Positions 12,338-34,903 of a stretch of DNA of 64,000 nucleotides are shown here, piece by piece. Under the pieces are notes generated by a model. It saw only the letters and a program-made list of their open reading frames with translations, searched no databases and had not been told where the DNA came from. The stretch lies in sequence record SRR2962707_925. One strand, given 5' to 3'. The position numbers and the translations under genes are program-made. Every line of letters begins with the position of its first letter. Position 1 is the first letter of the stretch.

Positions 12338-12904
12338 ATGGAGCAAAGTGAAACAAACTCTCAGTTCAACGCGGAATTACTTTGTCCGGCCAAGCCCGGC
12401 GAAGGCGCTCCCTGGGCCTTTATTGTTCTGCCCCGGGAGGCAAGCAAAAAGCTTCCCAGGCGGGGAAGAACAACGGTAGAGGCCAGCCTCAACGGTCATC
12501 ATTTTCAGGTAACGCTCGAGCCCGATGGTCAATTGAGCCATTGGCTAAAGGTGAGCAAGGAACATCTCGAAGCTGCAGGTGTGAGCGTCGGTGATGTTGT
12601 TGATTTGGGCATCAGGCCGGTGGACCAGGAACCTGAACCAGAAGTTCCCTCGGACCTGCAAGAGGCGTTGGAAGCGGCCCCCGAGGCTCGGGTGGTTTGG
12701 AATGAGACAACCACCATCGCGCGTCTGGACTGGATTCATTGGATTGTCTCAGCCAAGCAGGCAAAAACCCGGACGAAGCGAATTAGCGATGCGTGCGACA
12801 TGCTGGCCTCGGGAAAGCGGCGCGTTTGCTGCTTTGATCCTTCAGGGTATTACAGCAAAGCACTCAGTGCGCCCAAGGCGGCGGACACACAGGAGATTGG
12901 ATGA
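12338..12904 (+). CDS. YdeI/OmpD-associated family protein (DUF1905 + OmdA domain)
   Basis: PDGQLSHWL N-terminal domain; VPSDLQEAL...WIHWIVSAKQAKTR.KRI C-terminal domain; GGAGG RBS before ATG 12338. Confidence 0.8.
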   Translation: MEQSETNSQFNAELLCPAKPGEGAPWAFIVLPREASKKLPRRGRTTVEASLNGHHFQVTLEPDGQLSHWLKVSKEHLEAAGVSVGDVVDLGIRPVDQEPEPEVPSDLQEALEAAPEARVVWNETTTIARLDWIHWIVSAKQAKTRTKRISDACDMLASGKRRVCCFDPSGYYSKALSAPKAADTQEIG

Positions 12905-14289
12905 GCAAGCCCGTTGTATCAAGCCCCCTGCGGCGAGCTTTCCCGCTTGTCGCAATCCTTTTGCTCACCGCCTGCGATGCGCCACAACTTCTTCCGCCTG
13001 ACGCCCGCCTTCCGGACGGCAGTACCTATTCCGGTGATATTCAGGATGGTTACTTTCACGGTGAAGGCGTTCAGGAATTTGCCAGTGGCATGGTCTACAC
13101 CGGCCAGTTCCAGGAGGGCTACTGGCACGGCCATGGTGAGCTCGAATCTCCGGCGGGTTGGCATTACGAGGGCGAGTTCCAGAAAGGGACGATGTCGGGA
13201 CAGGGCGTAATCGAAGACGACGGCAGTCGCTACGAGGGGGAATTCCGGAACGGTGAGTTTCACGGTGAGGGGCGTTACGAAGCCGGTGGCAGTGTCTATA
13301 TCGCTGAGTTTGAAGATGGCGAGCCCGTGGAGGGAAAACACGTTACGGATTACGGCACCTACGAAGGGGAGTTCCGTGACTGGTATTACCACGGGGAAGG
13401 CAGCTACGCCTTTACCGGCGAATCGGAGGATCTGGGTAGCCTCACAGGAACCTGGGAGTTTGGTGAGTTCGTCGACCAGGAAGAGTACGTCGCGGAAGCA
13501 CCTGTCCCGGAAGAACCAGCGCTTTTGACTGAGACTGTTCTCGTCGAAGACCGTCGGCGCCTGAGCAACCAGATCGAGAGTCTCGCCCCGGAACAGGCGG
13601 GGGCGGCAGACGCCTACTTCCTGGCCGTGGGTGGCGACGGTACCGAGTCGGTGTTCATGCGCGATATCCAGGTTGCCAAAACTGGCCTTCAGGCGCAGTT
13701 CGATGTGGAAAACCGCATCATCATGCTGCTCAATCACCGGGACTATGAAACGTTTCCTCTGGCTACCCGGCCATCCATTGCCTCAGCTCTGGAGGCATTG
13801 GATGCGCAGATGAACCCGAAGGAAGACCTGCTCGTGGTTCACTTGGTCAGCCACGGTATGCAAAACGGACAACTGCTGTTGCAGCAACCCGGTATCGAGT
13901 TGCCGAACCTCTCGCCGCAGGATTTTGCGGAAATGCTGGAACCACTGAACGTGCGCCGAAAACTGCTAGTGATTTCCGCATGCTACTCCGGCCAGTGGAT
14001 AGAGCCACTCAAGGACGAAGACACACTGATCATGACCTCCGCCCGGTCAGACCGTACCTCTTTCGGCTGTGGTGATGACTCGGAGATGACCTGGTTCACC
14101 AAGGCGGTTTATCAGAGTGTGGGGCTGTCATTGGCCGACCCTGATGCCATGTTCGAGAACATCAACCAGCAGATCCGAACCTGGGAAGAAGAGATTGGTA
14201 TGGAAGAATCGAATTGGTCCTATCCCCAGTCGCACGTCGGTGAGAACCTGCGTAAGTGGTTGAGCCAGATGTCTCAAACTACGCCATAG
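12901..14289 (+). CDS. MORN-repeat C13 (legumain/caspase-fold) peptidase lipoprotein
   Basis: Lipobox LLTAC; repeated Y.G.F..G..HG.G MORN units; catalytic SHG and SACYSG; RTSFGC. Confidence 0.87.
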   Translation: MSKPVVSSPLRRAFPLVAILLLTACDAPQLLPPDARLPDGSTYSGDIQDGYFHGEGVQEFASGMVYTGQFQEGYWHGHGELESPAGWHYEGEFQKGTMSGQGVIEDDGSRYEGEFRNGEFHGEGRYEAGGSVYIAEFEDGEPVEGKHVTDYGTYEGEFRDWYYHGEGSYAFTGESEDLGSLTGTWEFGEFVDQEEYVAEAPVPEEPALLTETVLVEDRRRLSNQIESLAPEQAGAADAYFLAVGGDGTESVFMRDIQVAKTGLQAQFDVENRIIMLLNHRDYETFPLATRPSIASALEALDAQMNPKEDLLVVHLVSHGMQNGQLLLQQPGIELPNLSPQDFAEMLEPLNVRRKLLVISACYSGQWIEPLKDEDTLIMTSARSDRTSFGCGDDSEMTWFTKAVYQSVGLSLADPDAMFENINQQIRTWEEEIGMEESNWSYPQSHVGENLRKWLSQMSQTTP

Positions 14290-14317
14290 AAAGCTAAAAC
14301 ACCGTGATGAGCTCGCG

Positions 14318-15538
14318 ATGGACCCGATGATCACAGCCGCTGGCCGAGCGCTTGCGATGGGCGACCCGTTGGCCGCGCTGAACTGCGTTGCCTTGCGCGA
14401 CGACGCGCAGTCGCTTGCGCTGCGTGGCATCGCCATGGCTCAGCTCGGAGAACTGGACCGGGCCAGGGTGTTGATAGGCAACGCTACCCGTGCTTTTGGT
14501 TCGCGGGAACCGTTGGCACGTGCAAAGTGCATTGTGGCCGAGGCGGAAATTGCGCTTGCTTCCCGTGATCTCGGCTGGCCATCCCGCAAGCTTGACGCAG
14601 CGCGCGAGGTGCTGGAACAGCATGGCGACCGGGTGAATGCAACGCATGCGCGCTATATCGATATCCGGCGCCGGCTGCTGATCGGTCGACTCGATGAAGC
14701 TGAGCTCGAACTGGGGGTTATGGACGTAGCCTCGTTGCCGCCGGCGTTGAGAGCCATCCATGAACTTATTGTTGCCGGGATCGCTATGCGGCGCCTGGAA
14801 ACCCAGGTGGCACGCGATGCGCTCCTGCAGGCCGAACGCGCCTCACAGCACGCCGGTATTCCGGCTCTTGTGGCTGAAGTCGCCAGTAAAGTTGAACTTC
14901 TGGGCTTGCCCGCCGCTCGCCTGACCAGGATGGGGAGTGAGCGGTTGCTGCTTCTAAATGAAGTAGAAGCGTTAATGGCGTCCCAGGCGTTTGTGGTCGA
15001 CGGATGCCGTTTTACCGTGAAGCACAAGGAAGCTGTTGTGTCACTCGCGACGCGCCCTTTGCTGTTTGTGTTGCTTCGCATCATGGCTGAAGCCTGGCCC
15101 AAAGAAGCATCCAGAGACGAGCTGATTGCACGGGCGTTTCGCATGAAACAGGCTGATGATTCCCATCGTGCGCGTCTGCGGGTGGAGATCGGGCGCCTTC
15201 GTGAGTTATTGAAGCCGTTGGCAACCGTGGATGCCACCTCACGGGGTTTTGCACTGGTGCCCCATGAGGCGTGCGAGGTGGCCGTCCTGGCACAGCCAGT
15301 GGAGGAAAAGTACGCGCCTATACTGGCACTGCTTTCCGATGGTGAGTCCTGGTCGAGTTCCGCCTTGGCTCTGGCGTTGAATATCGGCCAGCGCAGCGTG
15401 CAGCGGGCACTCGATACGTTAGCGACAGAAGGCAAGGTTTATTCGTTTGGCCGGGGCCGCAACCGCCGCTGGACAACGCCACCCATTGCCGGATTCGCGA
15501 CAATCTTGTTACTCCCTGGTTCACTGGCCCTTGGCTAA
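14318..15538 (+). CDS. Helical-repeat protein with winged-helix and C-terminal HTH (putative transcription factor)
   Basis: Ala/Leu-rich TPR-like N-terminus; SRDELIARAF...LRVEIGRLR (OmpR-like wHTH); SSSALALALNIGQRSVQRAL (HTH). Confidence 0.75.
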   Translation: MDPMITAAGRALAMGDPLAALNCVALRDDAQSLALRGIAMAQLGELDRARVLIGNATRAFGSREPLARAKCIVAEAEIALASRDLGWPSRKLDAAREVLEQHGDRVNATHARYIDIRRRLLIGRLDEAELELGVMDVASLPPALRAIHELIVAGIAMRRLETQVARDALLQAERASQHAGIPALVAEVASKVELLGLPAARLTRMGSERLLLLNEVEALMASQAFVVDGCRFTVKHKEAVVSLATRPLLFVLLRIMAEAWPKEASRDELIARAFRMKQADDSHRARLRVEIGRLRELLKPLATVDATSRGFALVPHEACEVAVLAQPVEEKYAPILALLSDGESWSSSALALALNIGQRSVQRALDTLATEGKVYSFGRGRNRRWTTPPIAGFATILLLPGSLALG

Positions 15539-16262: not shown

Positions 16263-17507
16263 CTAGATGTCTCGTGATTCAAACTCTGTATTGCGCGGAT
16301 CAAGTTCCTCAACCCCCAATCCTGCTTCCGGAGTGACGGTGTAGTACTGCTCCTGCTGCTCCACAGTTGGGTGTTGGCGCTTCGGCCCCGCAACCATGAA
16401 CAGGATCAGCCCTCCCAGCATCAGGGCATTGCTGACGAAAAGGCCCCGCGGCCCCAGAAGGTCCATGAACAGGGAACTGACCAGCGGGCCGATGATGCTG
16501 CCAATGCCGTAACTCAGTAACAGTGCTGTGCTCGCTGCGGTGATCTGGTGGGTTTCCATCAGGTCATTGGTGATGGCCACAGCGATGGGGTAGATGGCAG
16601 CACTGATGCCCATGTACAACCCGACAAACAGCACCAGGGCCACCATGCTGATGTTGCCAATAATGGCCGCAGCCAGACTGCACACGGCAGCGACGATGGC
16701 GGCCACCAGCATGACCCGGTATCGGTCGAAGCGGTCGCACAGTTGCCCGATGGGCCAGGCCATCAGCATGGCAGCCACGATGGCCGAAGCCATGAAGTTG
16801 GAGAGCTGCCCGAGGTTCAGGCCAATCTGATTGGCGTACACTGGTCCCATGGCATAGAAGGCACTGATGAGCAGCCCGGCGATCAGTGCGCCGAGCGTGC
16901 CCGTTGGTGACTTGTTATAGAGTTTACGTAATGACAGGCGTTCACCCTGCGAAACCGACGGTGACTCCCGGCGGGTCATTGTCAGGGGGGTGAGGGCGAG
17001 CACCACCAGGATGGTGGCCAGGGAAAAGGGAATAAAGCCCGCCGGGTCGGCGACGCGTATCAATACCTGACCCCCGGCAGTGGATAGGAAGAAGATGACC
17101 TGGTAAATGGCAAACAGGCTGGCCCGGTTACGGTTGTCGGCCTTGCTGCTGAACCAGCTTTCCATCACGATCATCAGGCCGGCCATTACGAAGCCGCCCA
17201 CGGCCCGCAGGCCACCCCAGAGTCCGGCCTGGACGGCCATTGGATAAATCAGAATCGAGGCAGAAAGCACCGCGGCGAAAACCGCGAACGCGCGGATGTG
17301 TCCCACCTTTTCAATGATGCGCCCGGCATAGAGCGTGCCGGCCACAAAGCCGATGGAGTAGAACGCCAGGATCCACCCGATCACACTGGCGCTGAAGTCT
17401 TCGATGCTGAGCCTGAGCCCCAGCAGGGTCATGAGGAAAGCGTTACCCGCGATGAGCAGAATGATGCTCAGGATCAGTGACGTCAGGCTGATGATGGTTT
17501 GCCGCAT
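16263..17507 (-). CDS. MFS transporter (YcaD-like)
   Basis: 12 TM pattern, VGHIRAFA, ESW, DRFDR motifs. Confidence 0.88.
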   Translation of the reverse strand: MRQTIISLTSLILSIILLIAGNAFLMTLLGLRLSIEDFSASVIGWILAFYSIGFVAGTLYAGRIIEKVGHIRAFAVFAAVLSASILIYPMAVQAGLWGGLRAVGGFVMAGLMIVMESWFSSKADNRNRASLFAIYQVIFFLSTAGGQVLIRVADPAGFIPFSLATILVVLALTPLTMTRRESPSVSQGERLSLRKLYNKSPTGTLGALIAGLLISAFYAMGPVYANQIGLNLGQLSNFMASAIVAAMLMAWPIGQLCDRFDRYRVMLVAAIVAAVCSLAAAIIGNISMVALVLFVGLYMGISAAIYPIAVAITNDLMETHQITAASTALLLSYGIGSIIGPLVSSLFMDLLGPRGLFVSNALMLGGLILFMVAGPKRQHPTVEQQEQYYTVTPEAGLGVEELDPRNTEFESRDI

Positions 17508-17681
17508 CAATCGTCGGTCCCCGCTTGTCCGCTAGTCTGGATGTCCGTATAAGTTTGTGGGGTTGTGCGGAAATACTGTAGTGATGGTCTCGCTTGAATT
17601 AAAGGGGCCCATCCGATCCGTCTGTGGTGTGAATTCGTGCGCTGTTGAGAACAGCGCTTCAGAGGTGAGGTAGAAAGTTCA

Positions 17682-17909
17682 TTGACGCCGGAACAAATCG
17701 ATACCCTGCTGGAAACCATCCCCGACGCCCGTGACGGTCTCACCCGCACGGAGCGGATCATTCTCTATGTGTTACACGAAACCCAGCATGAGTTAAAAGG
17801 TCGTAACGTGCCAACGGTTATGCTCTATGGCCGGGTGGTGGAATACGTCAACATCAGCGAAGCGGAGCTCCATGTCTATCTGGACAGGTTGGGTGTGAGG
17901 GGCGGCTGA
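17682..17909 (+). CDS. Small protein resembling the GyrA/ParC N-terminal winged-helix segment
   Basis: IPDARDGL..ERIILY mirrors GyrA [14 protein letters not shown]; TTG start with a GAGG RBS. Confidence 0.7.
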   Translation: MTPEQIDTLLETIPDARDGLTRTERIILYVLHETQHELKGRNVPTVMLYGRVVEYVNISEAELHVYLDRLGVRGG

Positions 17910-18012
17910 GTTGCCCCAGGTCATTGATTTTCGCCGTTCATTATTTGCGCAAACGCTAATCCACTGTTAGGTTTCTAGTCAGGGCTTCATCCTGAATTCA
18001 TAGGGAGAGCGC

Positions 18013-18429
18013 ATGGCAGACACCGTCACTGACTTGCTGGTCCGCTACTGGGCCACCGGCTTCTTCATCGTTGCCACATTGGGCCTTTGTGCCTTTATGG
18101 TGGGTGCCTCCAGCTTGCTTGGAGGGCGTAGCCGGGGTGTCAGCAAATCCCTCCCTTTCGAGTCCGGCATCGTCGGCACCGGTGATGCCAGACAACGCTT
18201 TTCCGTCAAGTTTTATCTGGTCGCGATGCTGTTCGTGATCTTCGATATCGAAGCCGTGTTCCTGTTTGCCTGGGCCATTGTCATTCCCGACGTGGGCTGG
18301 ACAGGATTCTGGGGCGCGGCGGTTTTTATCCTGATTCTGCTGGCCGGTCTGCTCTATGACAGTCGTACCGGTGCCCTGGACTGGGCCCCGGAATCATCCA
18401 GCGGTAGACCTCGTAGTCCGGCAGGCTGA
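18013..18429 (+). CDS. nuoA: NADH-quinone oxidoreductase subunit A
   Basis: [25 protein letters not shown]. Confidence 0.95.
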
Positions 18430-18501: not shown

Positions 18502-19179
18502 ATGTCCTACACACTGACCAGAGCGGAACCTTCGCCGGACGGTGACACGCAATACCCGGTACGGCAACAGGAACCGTCGGAAGATCCGGTGAAACGCCAG
18601 CTTGAACGCAATGTGTTCACCGGCAAGCTGAGCGACGTTCTCAATTCCGCGGTCAACTGGGGCCGCAAGAATTCCCTTTGGCCCTACAACTTCGGGCTGT
18701 CCTGCTGCTACGTGGAAATGACCACGGCCTTCACCGCGCCCCACGACATTGCCCGTTTCGGCTCCGAAGTTATCCGCGCATCGCCCCGACAGGCGGATTT
18801 CATGGTGATTGCCGGCACCTGCTTCATCAAGATGGCACCGGTGATCCAGCAACTGTACGACCAGATGCTGGAGCCCAAGTGGGTAATCTCCATGGGCTCA
18901 TGCGCAAACTCCGGCGGTATGTACGACATCTACTCGGTGGTGCAGGGCGTCGACAAGTTCCTGCCAGTGGATGTGTATGTGCCCGGTTGCCCGCCCCGGC
19001 CAGAGGCCTTTCTGCAGGGGTTGCAGTTGCTGCAGGACTCCATCCAGGAAGAACGCCGCCCGCTGTCCTGGGTGGTGGGCGATCAGGGGGTCTATCGGGC
19101 GGAGATGCCGTCCCAGCGTGAAAAATGGCGGGACCAGCGCATCCAGGCCACCGAACTGAGAACGCCGGACAAACTGTGA
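18502..19179 (+). CDS. nuoB: NADH-quinone oxidoreductase subunit B
   Basis: [32 protein letters not shown]. Confidence 0.96.
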
Positions 19180-20936
19180 CAAACGCAACGATGACGACAG
19201 GCACCGCTGACTTCGAGAGCCTGCTGGGCGATTTTAGAGAGGATGTACTGCATGTACAGCCCACGCTGACGGGCATGCCCGTATTCTGGGTGTCTCGTGA
19301 GAGCATCGTGGATATCCTGACCCACTTGAAGCGGCAGCCAGCGCCATTTTCCATGCTCTATGACCTGTCGGCCGTGGATGAGCGCTTGCGTGGTCACAGG
19401 AACGGTCTGCCAGAGGCTGACTTCACCGTGTTCTACCACTTGCTGTCGGTGGAGCGTAATGAAGACCTGATCCTGAAGGTTGGGCTGCCAGAGAGCGATT
19501 TGCGGGTGCCCACCGTTAGCAACGTCTTCGCCAATGCCAACTGGTACGAGCGGGAAATCCTGGATATGTTCGGCATCGCCGTCGCCGGGCACCCGCATCC
19601 GGAGCGGATCCTGATGCCGCCGACCTGGACAGGCCATCCGCTGCGGAAGGATTACCCCGCCCGGGCCACCGAGTTCGACCCCTATACCCTGACTGTGGAA
19701 GGCCAGGATGCCGAACAGGAAGCCATGCGGTTCGACCCGGAAGCCTGGGGCATGCAGCGTGAACGCGACGGGGCGGAGTTCATGTTCCTCAACCTGGGGC
19801 CCAACCACCCATCCGCCCATGGGGCTTTCCGCATTGTGCTGCAACTGGATGGTGAGGAAATCGTCGATTGCGTGCCAGACATTGGCTACCACCACCGGGG
19901 CGCCGAGAAAATGGCCGAGCGCCAGTCCTGGCACAGCTTTATTCCCTACACTGATCGCATTGACTACACCGGTGGCGTGATGAACAACCTGCCTTATGTG
20001 CTGGCCGCAGAAAAACTGGCCGGTATTGAGGTGCCGGACAGGGTGAAGGTGATTCGGGTGATGATGGCCGAGATGTTCCGCATCACCAGCCATCTGTTGT
20101 TCCTCGGGACGTACCTGCAGGATCTGGGGGCCATGACGCCGGTGTTCTACACCTTCAGCGACCGGCAGCGGGGCTACGAGGTGATCGAAGGCATTACCGG
20201 TTTTCGCATGCACCCGGCCTGGTACCGCATTGGCGGTGTGATGCAAGACCTGCCACAGGGTTGGGAAAAATTGGTGCAGGGCTTTCTGGACTGGATGCCT
20301 GCACGCCTGAAGGAATACGAGCGGGCGATGATGGAAAACGCCATCGTGCGCGAGCGGACCCGCCATGTGGCGGCCTTCAATACAGCCGAGGCACTGGAGT
20401 GGGGGGTGACCGGGCCTAACCTGCGGGCCACCGGCTGCGATTTTGATTTGCGTAAGCAGCGGCCTTACTCCGGTTATGAACAGTTCGATTTCGAGGTGCC
20501 GCTGGGCCACAACGGGGATGTGTTCGACCGGGGTCAGTTGCGTATCGATGAAATGCGCCAGAGCCTTCGAATCATCCAGCAGTGCGTCAACAACATGCCC
20601 GCGGGTGACTACAAGGCAGATCATCCTCTGACGACGCCACCACCCCGGGAACGCATGCTCCAGCACATTGAAACCCTCATTACCCACTTCCTGCAGGTGT
20701 CCTGGGGGCCGGTGCTGGAACCCAATGAATCCCTGCAGATGATTGAGGCCACCAAGGGCATCAACAGTTATTACCTGACCAGTGACGGCAACACCATGAG
20801 CTACCGTACCCGCATCCGCACCCCGAGTTTTCCGCACCTGCAGCAGATACCGGCGGTGATGCGCGGAGGCTTCGTGCCGGACCTGATCGCCCACCTGGGC
20901 AGTATCGACTTCGTGATGGCAGACGTGGACCGTTGA
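19176..20936 (+). CDS. nuoCD: NADH-quinone oxidoreductase fused subunit C/D
   Basis: [46 protein letters not shown] overlaps the nuoB stop. Confidence 0.95.
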
Positions 20937-32919: not shown

Positions 32920-34086
32920 CTATTTACCAAGAAGTTCGCCAACCGGACGCAAGTTAACGACATGGTCGCACAATGACTTGACGATCATCAGGATTGGAGT
33001 GGCAACCACGAGGCCTACGGGTCCCCAGAGCCAGCCCCAGAACAGCAGGCCGATAAAGATGGCAACCGCGTTGAGGCTGGAGATATGGCTGGTAAGCCAG
33101 GGCGTCAGCAGATAGCCCTGAACGCTGGTGATGGCCAGCGACGTGCCGGCAACAATGATCGACATCTCCAATTCGCCAAACTGGATAAAGGCGGCCACAC
33201 CTGTACCCATAAGCACCAGGAACGGACCCAGGTACGGCACGGCACTGGCGACGCCTGCCAAAACACCCCAAAAGCCGGCCTGTTCAACGCCCAGTGCCAA
33301 AAACGCCAGCCAGGTCAGCACGCCCACAAATACGGCACCTACAAACATCACAAACAGGAACTGTCGTACGCTGCGATGGAACTCGTTCATGATTCGGGCG
33401 GCTTTACGCATTCGTGCGAAGGATGGCCCGGATATTTTGACGATCTTGCGTCTGTACAGCGAGCCAATGGCGAGCACGAAATACACCAGCAACAACGCCG
33501 AGAAGCACTGGGAAATCAGCACCAGCGCTGCCGGGGAACCCTGAAGTACGTAATCTTTGATCTCGAGGGGTTCGTCCACCACGCGCACGGGCGTTGCACC
33601 CGATCGGGAGGCGTCTTCGTTGCCCTGATCGGGGCTGGCGGTGGCTTCAATTTTCTTTGCGGCGGATTGCGCTTTTTCCATCATGCTTTCCCCGTCCTTG
33701 GGGCGGCTGGCTTCATTCTGCTGAAACTGTTCGATGGCCACCGGTATCTTGTCCAGCATAGCCATGGCTTCCTGCTTCAGGGGAATACTGGCTCCGGCAA
33801 TGATACCGATAAGCAGAATCAACACCACAGCCGCCGCCAGGGGGCGGGGTACTCTCAACCGATTGATTGTGGCGACAAGGGGTTCGAGGGCGTAGCTGAT
33901 TAACACCGCCACCACCAGTGGCAAAAGAACCGCCTGGGCCCAGTCAATAAAATAAAGGGTTGCGATACTTGTGAGTGTGATAAGCGACATGCTGCGCATG
34001 TTGATGGCGTCAATCAGCGCCTGACTGTTCTGGGAGTTGTTGTCTGCTCCCGACTCCTCACGCTTTGTCTTATCGCCGTTCTCCAT
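32920..34086 (-). CDS. AI-2E family transporter
   Basis: VPYLGP, FWGWLWGPVGLVVATP motifs. Confidence 0.88.
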   Translation of the reverse strand: MENGDKTKREESGADNNSQNSQALIDAINMRSMSLITLTSIATLYFIDWAQAVLLPLVVAVLISYALEPLVATINRLRVPRPLAAAVVLILLIGIIAGASIPLKQEAMAMLDKIPVAIEQFQQNEASRPKDGESMMEKAQSAAKKIEATASPDQGNEDASRSGATPVRVVDEPLEIKDYVLQGSPAALVLISQCFSALLLVYFVLAIGSLYRRKIVKISGPSFARMRKAARIMNEFHRSVRQFLFVMFVGAVFVGVLTWLAFLALGVEQAGFWGVLAGVASAVPYLGPFLVLMGTGVAAFIQFGELEMSIIVAGTSLAITSVQGYLLTPWLTSHISSLNAVAIFIGLLFWGWLWGPVGLVVATPILMIVKSLCDHVVNLRPVGELLGK

Positions 34087-34903
34087 GGGATATTGCCTCC
34101 GTGTCTAATCGGTAAAACCGTTGCAGCGCTTCGTAGACTTCCGGCTGTTCCGCTTTCAGGTGCTCCGGTTGTTGGTAAAAGGCTTCCGTCAGCACTGCAA
34201 AAAACTCGGCGGGTTCGGTGGCGCCGTATGGGTCCAGCCAGGGCTTCTGGTGATGTTGAAGCGACTGTCTCAAGTGTTCATAGGCCTGAGTCATCGTTTC
34301 CTGCCAATGTCTTGCCTGTTCGCCGCTAAGTGGCGGAGCGCCGTCCGCAGTGCCGTCCAGATAGTCCAGCTGGTGGGCGAATTCGTGAAGAATGACGTTG
34401 TGGTGCCCAGCAGGATTGACGGCACCTTCCTCGCACTGTGTCCAGGCCAGAACCACCTGTCCATAACTTGAGGCTTCGCCGGCGCGAATCTCGTTACTCT
34501 CGCTCACCACCAGGCCATCATGCTCAATATCCCTGACACGATAGGCATCCGGATAGACCAGGATACTGCGGATGTCGTCGAAGTCGGAATAGCTGCGGTT
34601 CATGATGAGCAGGCAGGCATGTCCCGCGATGGTCAGGCGTACGGTGTCGTCCACCTCGAACCCATCGCAGCCGTAAAAGGATTTCTCCGCCAGGAACAAC
34701 TGTACATGCTGTTCCAGTTGTCGTTTCAGCTTGGCCGGCAACCCGGGGAATAGGGGCACCTGGGACTCGAGCGTCGCGCGCCAGTTCTCCGGAAAGGGAG
34801 TTTGAAGCTGTCTCTCGCGACGCCAGTTGCGGTAGAAAAACAGATAGAAAACCGAGGCGGCAATCACGGAAATCGCGCAGAGAGTGTAGATCAGCATGGG
34901 CAA
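34070..34903 (-). CDS. Zinc-dependent peptidase, MtfA/M90 family, with an N-terminal TM anchor
   Basis: FLAEKSF.G, ILVYP, NVILHEFAHQLD (HEXXH), YGATEPAEFFAV. Confidence 0.88.
   Translation of the reverse strand: MPMLIYTLCAISVIAASVFYLFFYRNWRRERQLQTPFPENWRATLESQVPLFPGLPAKLKRQLEQHVQLFLAEKSFYGCDGFEVDDTVRLTIAGHACLLIMNRSYSDFDDIRSILVYPDAYRVRDIEHDGLVVSESNEIRAGEASSYGQVVLAWTQCEEGAVNPAGHHNVILHEFAHQLDYLDGTADGAPPLSGEQARHWQETMTQAYEHLRQSLQHHQKPWLDPYGATEPAEFFAVLTEAFYQQPEHLKAEQPEVYEALQRFYRLDTEAISHGERR

Follow-up and report, generated by a model that had tools for sequence, protein, structure and literature searches.

Among the systems closest to the protein described here are the winged-helix domain (WHD) of the topoisomerase subunits GyrA and ParC, small winged helix-turn-helix (wHTH) proteins and domains (MarR/SlyA, Fur, PefI, and the ORC/Cdc6 and MCM winged helices), and small regulators of gyrase. 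In GyrA the Asp of PDxRDGL, the following Lys and the helix-1 Arg residues are located at the DNA-gate, near the TOPRIM metal site and the DNA backbone. Protein inhibitors of gyrase were covered in a 2024 review and include ParE, CcdB, TsbT, microcin B17, phage peptides, FicT, Qnr/MfpA, YacG, MurI and GyrI; the section headings of that review name no GyrA fragment, and YacG and GyrI are examples of small gyrase regulators encoded on the chromosome (PMC10886550).

A 64,000-nt stretch of sequence record SRR2962707_925 (the window) was analysed and found to encode a 75-aa protein (the mini-protein, product of the mini-gene; its conserved part is called the mini-domain). The protein shares with the start of the GyrA/ParC WHD (PF00521, about positions 3-65) the PDxRDGL motif, the helix-1 Arg, a helix 2 of the form [ST]-A-x-h-h-G-x-V, and the order and spacing of three predicted helices, and the Pfam, NCBIfam and PDB matches of its family point to that site. 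Unlike GyrA and ParC it is without the beta-wing, the catalytic Tyr, HPHGD, the tower, the coiled-coil and the C-terminal domain, and the mini-domain either stands alone or is fused to non-topoisomerase enzymes. The gyrase regulators YacG, GyrI/SbmC, MurI and Qnr/MfpA are likewise small and chromosomal, and a gyrase link is among the possible functions proposed below, but they have no sequence or fold relation to the mini-protein; scans of Pfam and NCBIfam at E<=10 returned no YacG, GyrI, Qnr/MfpA, CcdB, ParE, TsbT, FicT or MurI family.

Gene, coordinates and leader

The open reading frame (ORF) at 17682..17909 on the + strand encodes 75 aa between a TTG start and a TGA stop, and residues 13-71 of the translation are the peptide quoted in the original prediction. 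That prediction had described an intact, stand-alone ORF with its own ribosome binding site (RBS) and stop and with no gyrA remnants at its flanks, and the ORF list, the translation and the RBS-like GAGGTGAGG bear this out, the neighbours being an MFS transporter gene and nuoA. The features of the region, in window positions, are as follows.

16263-17507, - strand: MFS transporter gene, divergent from the mini-gene
17639..17657, + strand: perfect 7-bp inverted repeat GCGCTGT-TGAGA-ACAGCGC in the leader, just 5' of the RBS-like GAGGTGAGG
17662..17670, + strand: Shine-Dalgarno-like GAGGTGAGG, 11 nt 5' of the TTG, read from the sequence
17682..17909, + strand: coding sequence of the 75-aa protein (ORF list and translation), acidic, pI 5.2, net charge about -4
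17721..17741, + strand: PDARDGL, residues 14-20 (family motif PDxRDGL, common to the start of the GyrA/ParC WHD)
17745..17792, + strand: predicted helix 1, residues 22-37, with the invariant R25 (AF2 model; aligns with GyrA WHD helix 1)
17814..17837, + strand: predicted helix 2, residues 45-52, T.MLYGRV (AF2 model; aligns with the SARVVGDV helix of GyrA)
17859..17891, + strand: predicted helix 3, residues 60-70, net charge not basic (AF2 model; equivalence to the third helix of the GyrA WHD tentative)
18013-18426: nuoA, neighbour downstream of the mini-gene

An RBS-like GAGG or GGAG likewise precedes the start in two related loci (L002 and L004). The inverted repeat at 17639-17657 has an identical sequence in L001 and is absent from L002 and from other species; because it is lineage-specific it probably lies outside the conserved unit. 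A scan of 17300-18200 for sigma-70-like promoters and intrinsic terminators returned none of either. SOS regulation of the mini-gene was considered and dropped, as only 4 of 98 loci had LexA-box-like sites upstream of the gene, and these sites varied in position.

Conservation, selection and RNA libraries

Conserved homologues with dN/dS below 1 had been proposed as a check on the prediction, and these were found. A protein search yielded 587 relatives of 41-132 aa, the best 120 of the 587 being at least 78% identical; those with an organism name were all entered as Marinobacter 'hypothetical protein'. Of the 25 genomes searched from the same genus (Marinobacter), 22 had the gene; among 16 other genera sampled from the order, none did. 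Where the match of a relative extends to residue 1, the first codon is TTG, ATG or GTG at the same alignment site. The median dN/dS was 0.064 (968 pairs from 91 unique sequences over 60 gap-free codons), with dS near saturation in this set, and variable sites numbered 38, 26 and 59 of 60 at codon positions 1, 2 and 3, so that the third position dominates. ORF 17682..17909 is a genuine gene under strong purifying selection. The intact frame, its conservation in Marinobacter and the low dN/dS uphold the earlier view that it is no decayed gyrA pseudogene, and since it is both conserved and divergent from the resident gyrA it is not a recent pseudogene fragment.

Contigs assembled from RNA-seq libraries span the mini-gene in 4 of 4 runs from two studies; this coverage is consistent with expression, such contigs being proof neither of transcription nor of a single transcript. 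Two of them begin at 17570 (run X6) and 17593 (run X14), between the divergent MFS gene and the mini-gene, and bridge to nuoA/nuoB. There are hints that in this lineage the mini-gene and the nuo operon may be carried on a shared transcript.

Could the ORF be a chance reading frame in the leader of the nuo operon, and no gene? The empty promoter and terminator scan around it would suit such a leader, as would RNA contigs that run on into nuoA and nuoB. Against this stand the dN/dS of 0.064, thousands of homologues in unrelated contexts and the 94 of 100 related loci that have no adjoining nuoA; the idea is already contradicted by the conservation data and is almost certainly wrong.

Loss of the gene within the genus is clear from genome G020, in which only the last 22 codons survive (L018:3034-3099) beside the M90 peptidase gene, with a gene for a 118-aa membrane protein in place of the 5' part of the mini-gene. 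The complete genome G007 of the same genus gave no match. As G020 retains 22 codons only and G007 is without a match, the mini-gene is dispensable.

Family size, core and distribution

A family profile was built from 23 Marinobacter-type members and scored against 1.84 billion representative proteins. Clustering at 50% identity gave 417 clusters at E<=1e-3, of which 315 also reached E<=1e-10. Lengths ranged from 57 to 176 aa among the 150 of 417 matches listed, and the majority of the family consists of stand-alone proteins about 65-100 aa long. They have in common a core of approximately 60 residues, [IL]PDVRDGLTRxERxVLxxLxxxQxExxGRNVPTxMLYGRVxEHxxxSxxELxxxLxRL. Across 82 diverse members D18, G19, R25 and G50 are invariant (82/82); E37, P44, L48, R51, V52 and E54 are each retained in 79 or more of the 82, as are P14, D15, R17 and L20 of the motif (each in 79-81).

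A distant subtype with MLWGRVCEHFYISPEDL (the LWGRVCE subtype) has 2539 relatives of its own, nearly all on metagenome contigs, for which the commonest known phylum according to the Atlas is Pseudomonadota. Relatives with an organism name beyond Marinobacter include Halospina and Saccharospirillum; among fused forms the names given are Kofleriaceae and Polyangiaceae. Family members are patchily distributed: two even samples of 401 genomes each, one from the window's phylum and one from its class, contained 4 and 8 genomes with a member, respectively.

This is a large family of small domains without annotation. No Pfam or NCBIfam model reaches its cut-off for it, PADLOC and PHROGs contain no match, and some members are named automatically 'DNA topoisomerase (ATP-hydrolyzing)' in UniRef and the Atlas. 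Viral contigs yielded 58 motif matches and no relative among them, and tblastn against phages and plasmids found no match. An origin from mobile elements was therefore dropped, the viral contigs, phages, plasmids, PADLOC and PHROGs all being empty.

Two unusual forms were recorded. P0150 and P0248, from a 3-member cluster found on 5 contigs, have a SEC-C-type Cys motif (PCPGGSGKKYKQCC) N-terminal to the mini core. In P0220, of 101 aa, a genuine-looking GyrA N-terminal arm runs in frame into the mini core, the junction being precisely the PDVRDGL that both have in common; its source is a single metagenome contig of 582 nt, and it was left out as evidence, being likely an assembly chimera formed at the shared DNA word, or else a rare recombinant.

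Similarity to the start of the GyrA/ParC winged-helix domain

Residues 13-53 of the mini-protein were matched to profile positions 3-42 of PF00521 with E 0.0051; the score, 16.2 bits, falls short of the cut-off (31 bits), and TIGR01063 gave 11.3 bits against a cut-off of 877. All 23 members scanned had a sub-threshold PF00521 match, seen in every case only at E<=1 (best 1.5e-4). The curated cut-offs for membership of PF00521 and TIGR01063 are thus not reached, while PDxRDGL and the helix-1 Arg are both present. Against the PDB, the family profile placed GyrA/ParC in the top 29 of 35 rows in a first run and in the top 32 of 46 rows in a second, all at one N-terminal site; type IIA topoisomerases made up 42 of the 46 in the second run. 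The best E-values were 0.004-0.005 and the confident alignment covers only about 25 residues. When whole genomes were searched with the family profile, GyrA reading frames passed 1e-5 (E 4e-6 to 8e-6) in no more than 3 of 401 genomes. A single BLASTP comparison with the GyrA fragment of the same genus gave 26% identity over 42 residues (E 1e-5).

For profile-profile comparison 26 WHD fragments of GyrA/ParC were taken from genomes of the phylum, in all of which PDxRDGL is invariant. Aligned by hhalign, the family and these fragments matched over 44 columns (mini 12-55 on WHD 1-44) with 95.0% probability and P 3.7e-8; a second, local run gave 95.8%, P 8.2e-9 and a score of 48.9, as compared to a mean of 11.4 and a maximum of 20.1 for 100 column-shuffled controls. 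Removal of PDxRDGL from both sides reduced the score to 17.2 (P 0.012), a value equalled by 3 of 100 shuffles, with the alignment held in exactly the same register. With greedy or global settings residues 12-75 were aligned to WHD 1-65 with one single-residue gap, R69 standing opposite the Arg of VRMAQ; the last third of this alignment has near-zero posterior.

The likeness to GyrA is, on these sequence comparisons, above chance and narrow. The original prediction, that the protein resembles the start of the DNA-gate winged helix of GyrA, is sustained for the first 44 or so residues, which align significantly. Its by-eye alignment, gap-free as far as G.V and then with one gap to an Arg, was reproduced by the profiles, with the near-zero posterior falling on the final third. 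Coverage of the quinolone-resistance helix was not upheld, as it rests on the low-confidence part of the alignment. Likeness beyond the 7-aa motif keeps its register and is marginal in significance. That the protein stops ahead of the catalytic Tyr was confirmed: the Tyr (AAMRYTE region) is at alignment column 90, and even in the greediest alignment the protein ends at column 65. The tower, the coiled-coil C-gate and the C-terminal beta-pinwheel are all absent from the 75-residue chain. Because the wing, the catalytic Tyr and everything after it are lost, no cutting of DNA is possible; the mini-protein is neither a topoisomerase nor a member of PF00521.

From the profiles and models taken together we infer that the mini-domain probably descends from a common ancestor with the start of the GyrA/ParC WHD (its first 45-65 residues). 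The alternative is that an ordinary HTH-type domain came to have a GyrA-like PDxRDGL-helix start by chance or structural constraint, with no shared ancestry. The profile-profile P of only 0.012 once the motif is taken out would agree with such convergence, as would PDB and Pfam E-values of 0.004-0.005 that lie under curated cut-offs, and fold searches that yield only generic matches. It would, however, have to account for a motif-less alignment in exactly the same register, for G50 and V52, which fall on columns invariant in GyrA, for three co-linear helices with a single 1-residue indel, and for the predominance of type IIA topoisomerases (42 of 46) among the PDB sequences matched by the family profile. 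Convergence is accordingly regarded as unlikely.

Predicted structure

The mini-protein was modelled by AF2 with a mean pLDDT of 83.6 and a pTM of 0.70. The model contains a short N-terminal helix (residues 3-11), the motif loop, helices at 22-37, 45-52 and 60-70, and no strands; the PDxRDGL loop has a pLDDT of about 65. Its three-helix core has the helix-turn-helix geometry of wHTH domains. No beta-hairpin wing follows helix 3 in the model, the chain stopping 5 residues past that helix. The predicted fold is a three-helix, wing-less core of winged-helix type behind the conserved PDxRDGL loop.

A 125-residue fragment of GyrA was modelled with a pLDDT of 63 overall and about 70-80 over residues 11-60, with helices at 11-22, 34-44 and 50-61. 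In the hhalign register (mini = fragment + 11) these fall on mini-protein residues 22-33, 45-55 and 61-72, and therefore coincide with the three predicted helices of the mini-protein. The structural neighbours of the model include the protein-binding winged helices of RPA32C, Stn1, the MCM C-terminus and ORC WH. In a set of 82 members the core has a median net charge of 0, helix 3 has a net charge of 0 or below in 68, and conserved Arg residues are located at helix starts.

Domain fusions

The fusion search was limited to longer proteins, with architectures checked by Pfam and by motif position, and 54 proteins of 195-437 aa were found to contain the domain. It was most often C-terminal to a RimJ/RimL-type GNAT (Acetyltransf_3; about 21-25 clusters), and otherwise C-terminal to DUF6929/DUF6910 (6-7 clusters), Nudix (4), LMW phosphatase/ArsC-like proteins (3), other GNATs (2), and HAD, Methyltransf_11 and a radical-SAM-like region (1 each). 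It was N-terminal to DUF924, Peptidase_M1_N and DUF455 in 1 cluster each. None of the partners in the 54 longer proteins was a topoisomerase part. At least one apparent fusion (P0464) is an artefact of a spurious extension upstream, and read-through in gene calling may account for others. In a quick and poorly resolved tree, with 78 of 117 inner branches open, fused forms were scattered among stand-alone ones (16 label changes against a minimum possible of 10).

Enzyme partners of this kind are typical of wHTH one-component regulators, such as the Nudix-wHTH protein NrtR and ArsR-methyltransferase proteins. Fusion to assorted enzymes is more in keeping with a general binding module than with a decoy dedicated to gyrase.

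Gene neighbourhood

The original prediction had placed the gene just upstream of nuoA; this is true in the window, and the position is incidental and lineage-specific, since among 100 related loci found by tblastn the mini-gene has nuoA beside it in 6 and the MFS gene in 1. A convergent Peptidase_M90 gene adjoins it in 34 of the 100, and in 81 Marinobacter-type loci such a gene, present in 27, is the only recurrent neighbour. In 80 soil-metagenome loci of the distant subtype there was no conserved neighbour, the best real ones recurring in 7 and 6 loci; a further 8 gammaproteobacterial loci shared none of their neighbours. No linkage to gyrA, gyrB, parC or parE was present in the loci examined. 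The use of gene neighbourhood as a guide to function was abandoned, there being no conserved partner gene.

In the window the nuo operon (nuoA at 18013, a fused nuoCD at 19125-20936, extending to about 32873) is situated between the mini-gene and the M90 gene, and is followed by an AI-2E transporter gene (32920-34083, - strand) and the Peptidase_M90 gene itself (34070-34900, - strand). The nuo block looks inserted in this lineage, because M90 directly follows the mini-gene in many other Marinobacter.

Proposed function and alternatives

The joint explanation preferred here, to which a probability of roughly 0.5 is given, is that the mini-protein has a three-helix core descended from the GyrA/ParC WHD and serves as a non-catalytic binding module, most likely on DNA. 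A binding module is the best reading because the domain is too small for catalysis and is without the residues for it. Its conserved surface would be made up of the PDxRDGL loop, R22 and R25 where helix 1 begins, R41-N42-P44-T45 ahead of helix 2, R51 and R69. The family keeps Asp-Gly-Leu and one Arg (R25) of the GyrA site, and adds the conserved R22, R41, N42, T45, R51 and R69 at helix starts. By analogy to the corresponding surface of GyrA, we infer that these residues may contact a polyanionic partner, most likely the DNA backbone, in which case the mini-protein would be a small regulator or a tether. Several properties count against DNA as the ligand: the pI of 5.2, the median core charge of 0, the non-basic helix 3 in 68 of 82 members, the lack of a modelled wing and the lack of a conserved neighbouring target gene. 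The acidic charge, the non-basic helix 3 and the missing wing also fit a protein-binding role.

Two protein-binding roles were weighed against this reading. The original prediction had proposed a mimic of gyrase or topo IV (a dominant-negative modulator, or a decoy for gyrase-targeting toxins), with a small DNA-binding regulator as the other option. In the hypothetical decoy scheme the surface formed by PDxRDGL and helix 1 would be offered to the TOPRIM/tail of GyrB or ParE, and the mini-protein would compete with GyrA/ParC or shield the B subunit, thereby tuning supercoiling or blunting gyrase-directed toxins. The best-conserved part of the family is indeed the motif that is invariant in GyrA/ParC, and this motif and the next Arg lie next to the TOPRIM metal site, at the DNA-gate; modelled by itself, the loop has a pLDDT of about 65, which is what a segment that becomes ordered on its partner would show; the acidity of the protein and its non-basic helix 3 suit a binder of protein over one of DNA; and small chromosomal regulators of gyrase such as YacG and GyrI exist (PMC10886550). 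The remaining data speak against a decoy: the gene is not linked to gyrA, gyrB, parC or parE in the loci examined, is spread patchily (4/401 in the phylum sample, 8/401 in the class sample), has been lost from some Marinobacter (in G020 down to its last 22 codons), has GNAT, Nudix, phosphatase, HAD and methyltransferase enzymes as the fusion partners of its domain and never topoisomerase parts, and is absent from the phage and plasmid collections, in which many gyrase inhibitors reside. The decoy is considered quite unlikely.

Equally doubtful is an adaptor unrelated to topoisomerases, a protein-protein module of RPA32C or MCM type that would recruit the fused enzymes to a partner. Structural neighbours such as RPA32C, Stn1, the MCM C-terminus and ORC WH, the acidic to neutral surface and the modular, C-terminal fusion architecture all speak for it, but the gene neighbourhoods yield no candidate partner and the near-invariant GyrA-type motif would be left unexplained. 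A more speculative scheme, held to be less probable than either, is that the family is a new class of trans-acting partners of type IIA topoisomerases, in which a free-standing copy of the DNA-gate entry motif (PDxRDGL with helices 1-3) docks on the TOPRIM of GyrB/ParE or on gate DNA; the domain alone would tune supercoiling and, when fused to GNAT, Nudix, phosphatase or methyltransferase domains, would bring these enzymes to the topoisomerase or to its bound DNA. The non-catalytic binding module with GyrA/ParC ancestry is retained as the working explanation.

Literature and annotation

A full-text literature search for 'PDVRDGL' returned 0 papers, and a search of the literature on GyrA-like small proteins and gyrase protein inhibitors returned no description of the family, subscription journals lying outside the coverage of both. 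The excerpted text of PMC11381327 has no bearing on the PDxRDGL motif.

The automatic label 'DNA topoisomerase (ATP-hydrolyzing)' is misleading for a 75-aa protein without the catalytic residue. If the proposed ancestry is true, part of gyrase's catalytic DNA-gate has become a small domain in its own right, highly conserved, which thousands of bacteria keep alone or attached to metabolic enzymes; there would then be a new domain family to annotate and a readily testable candidate for a regulator of a new type, associated with topoisomerases or with DNA. If the domain is merely a generic helix-turn-helix, the mini-protein is an ordinary conserved hypothetical protein.

Additional observations

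In the nearest genome examined (G001) the topoisomerase genes appeared irregular: the parC match was in two adjacent pieces, the gyrA frame was only 586 aa, and the parE match began at profile position 46. These irregularities, carried in regions C1:106949-108257 and C1:1321097-1322524, are probably assembly indels in a single-contig assembly and of no biological meaning.

Further upstream in the window, 12901-15535 encodes a 462-aa protein with MORN repeats and a legumain-like Peptidase_C13 domain, followed by a 406-aa protein with a weak C-terminal HTH_29 match. In two related loci (L002 and L021) the genes for the 462-aa and 406-aa proteins, together with a 210-aa beta-propeller-like gene, directly abut the mini-gene, with no MFS gene between them.
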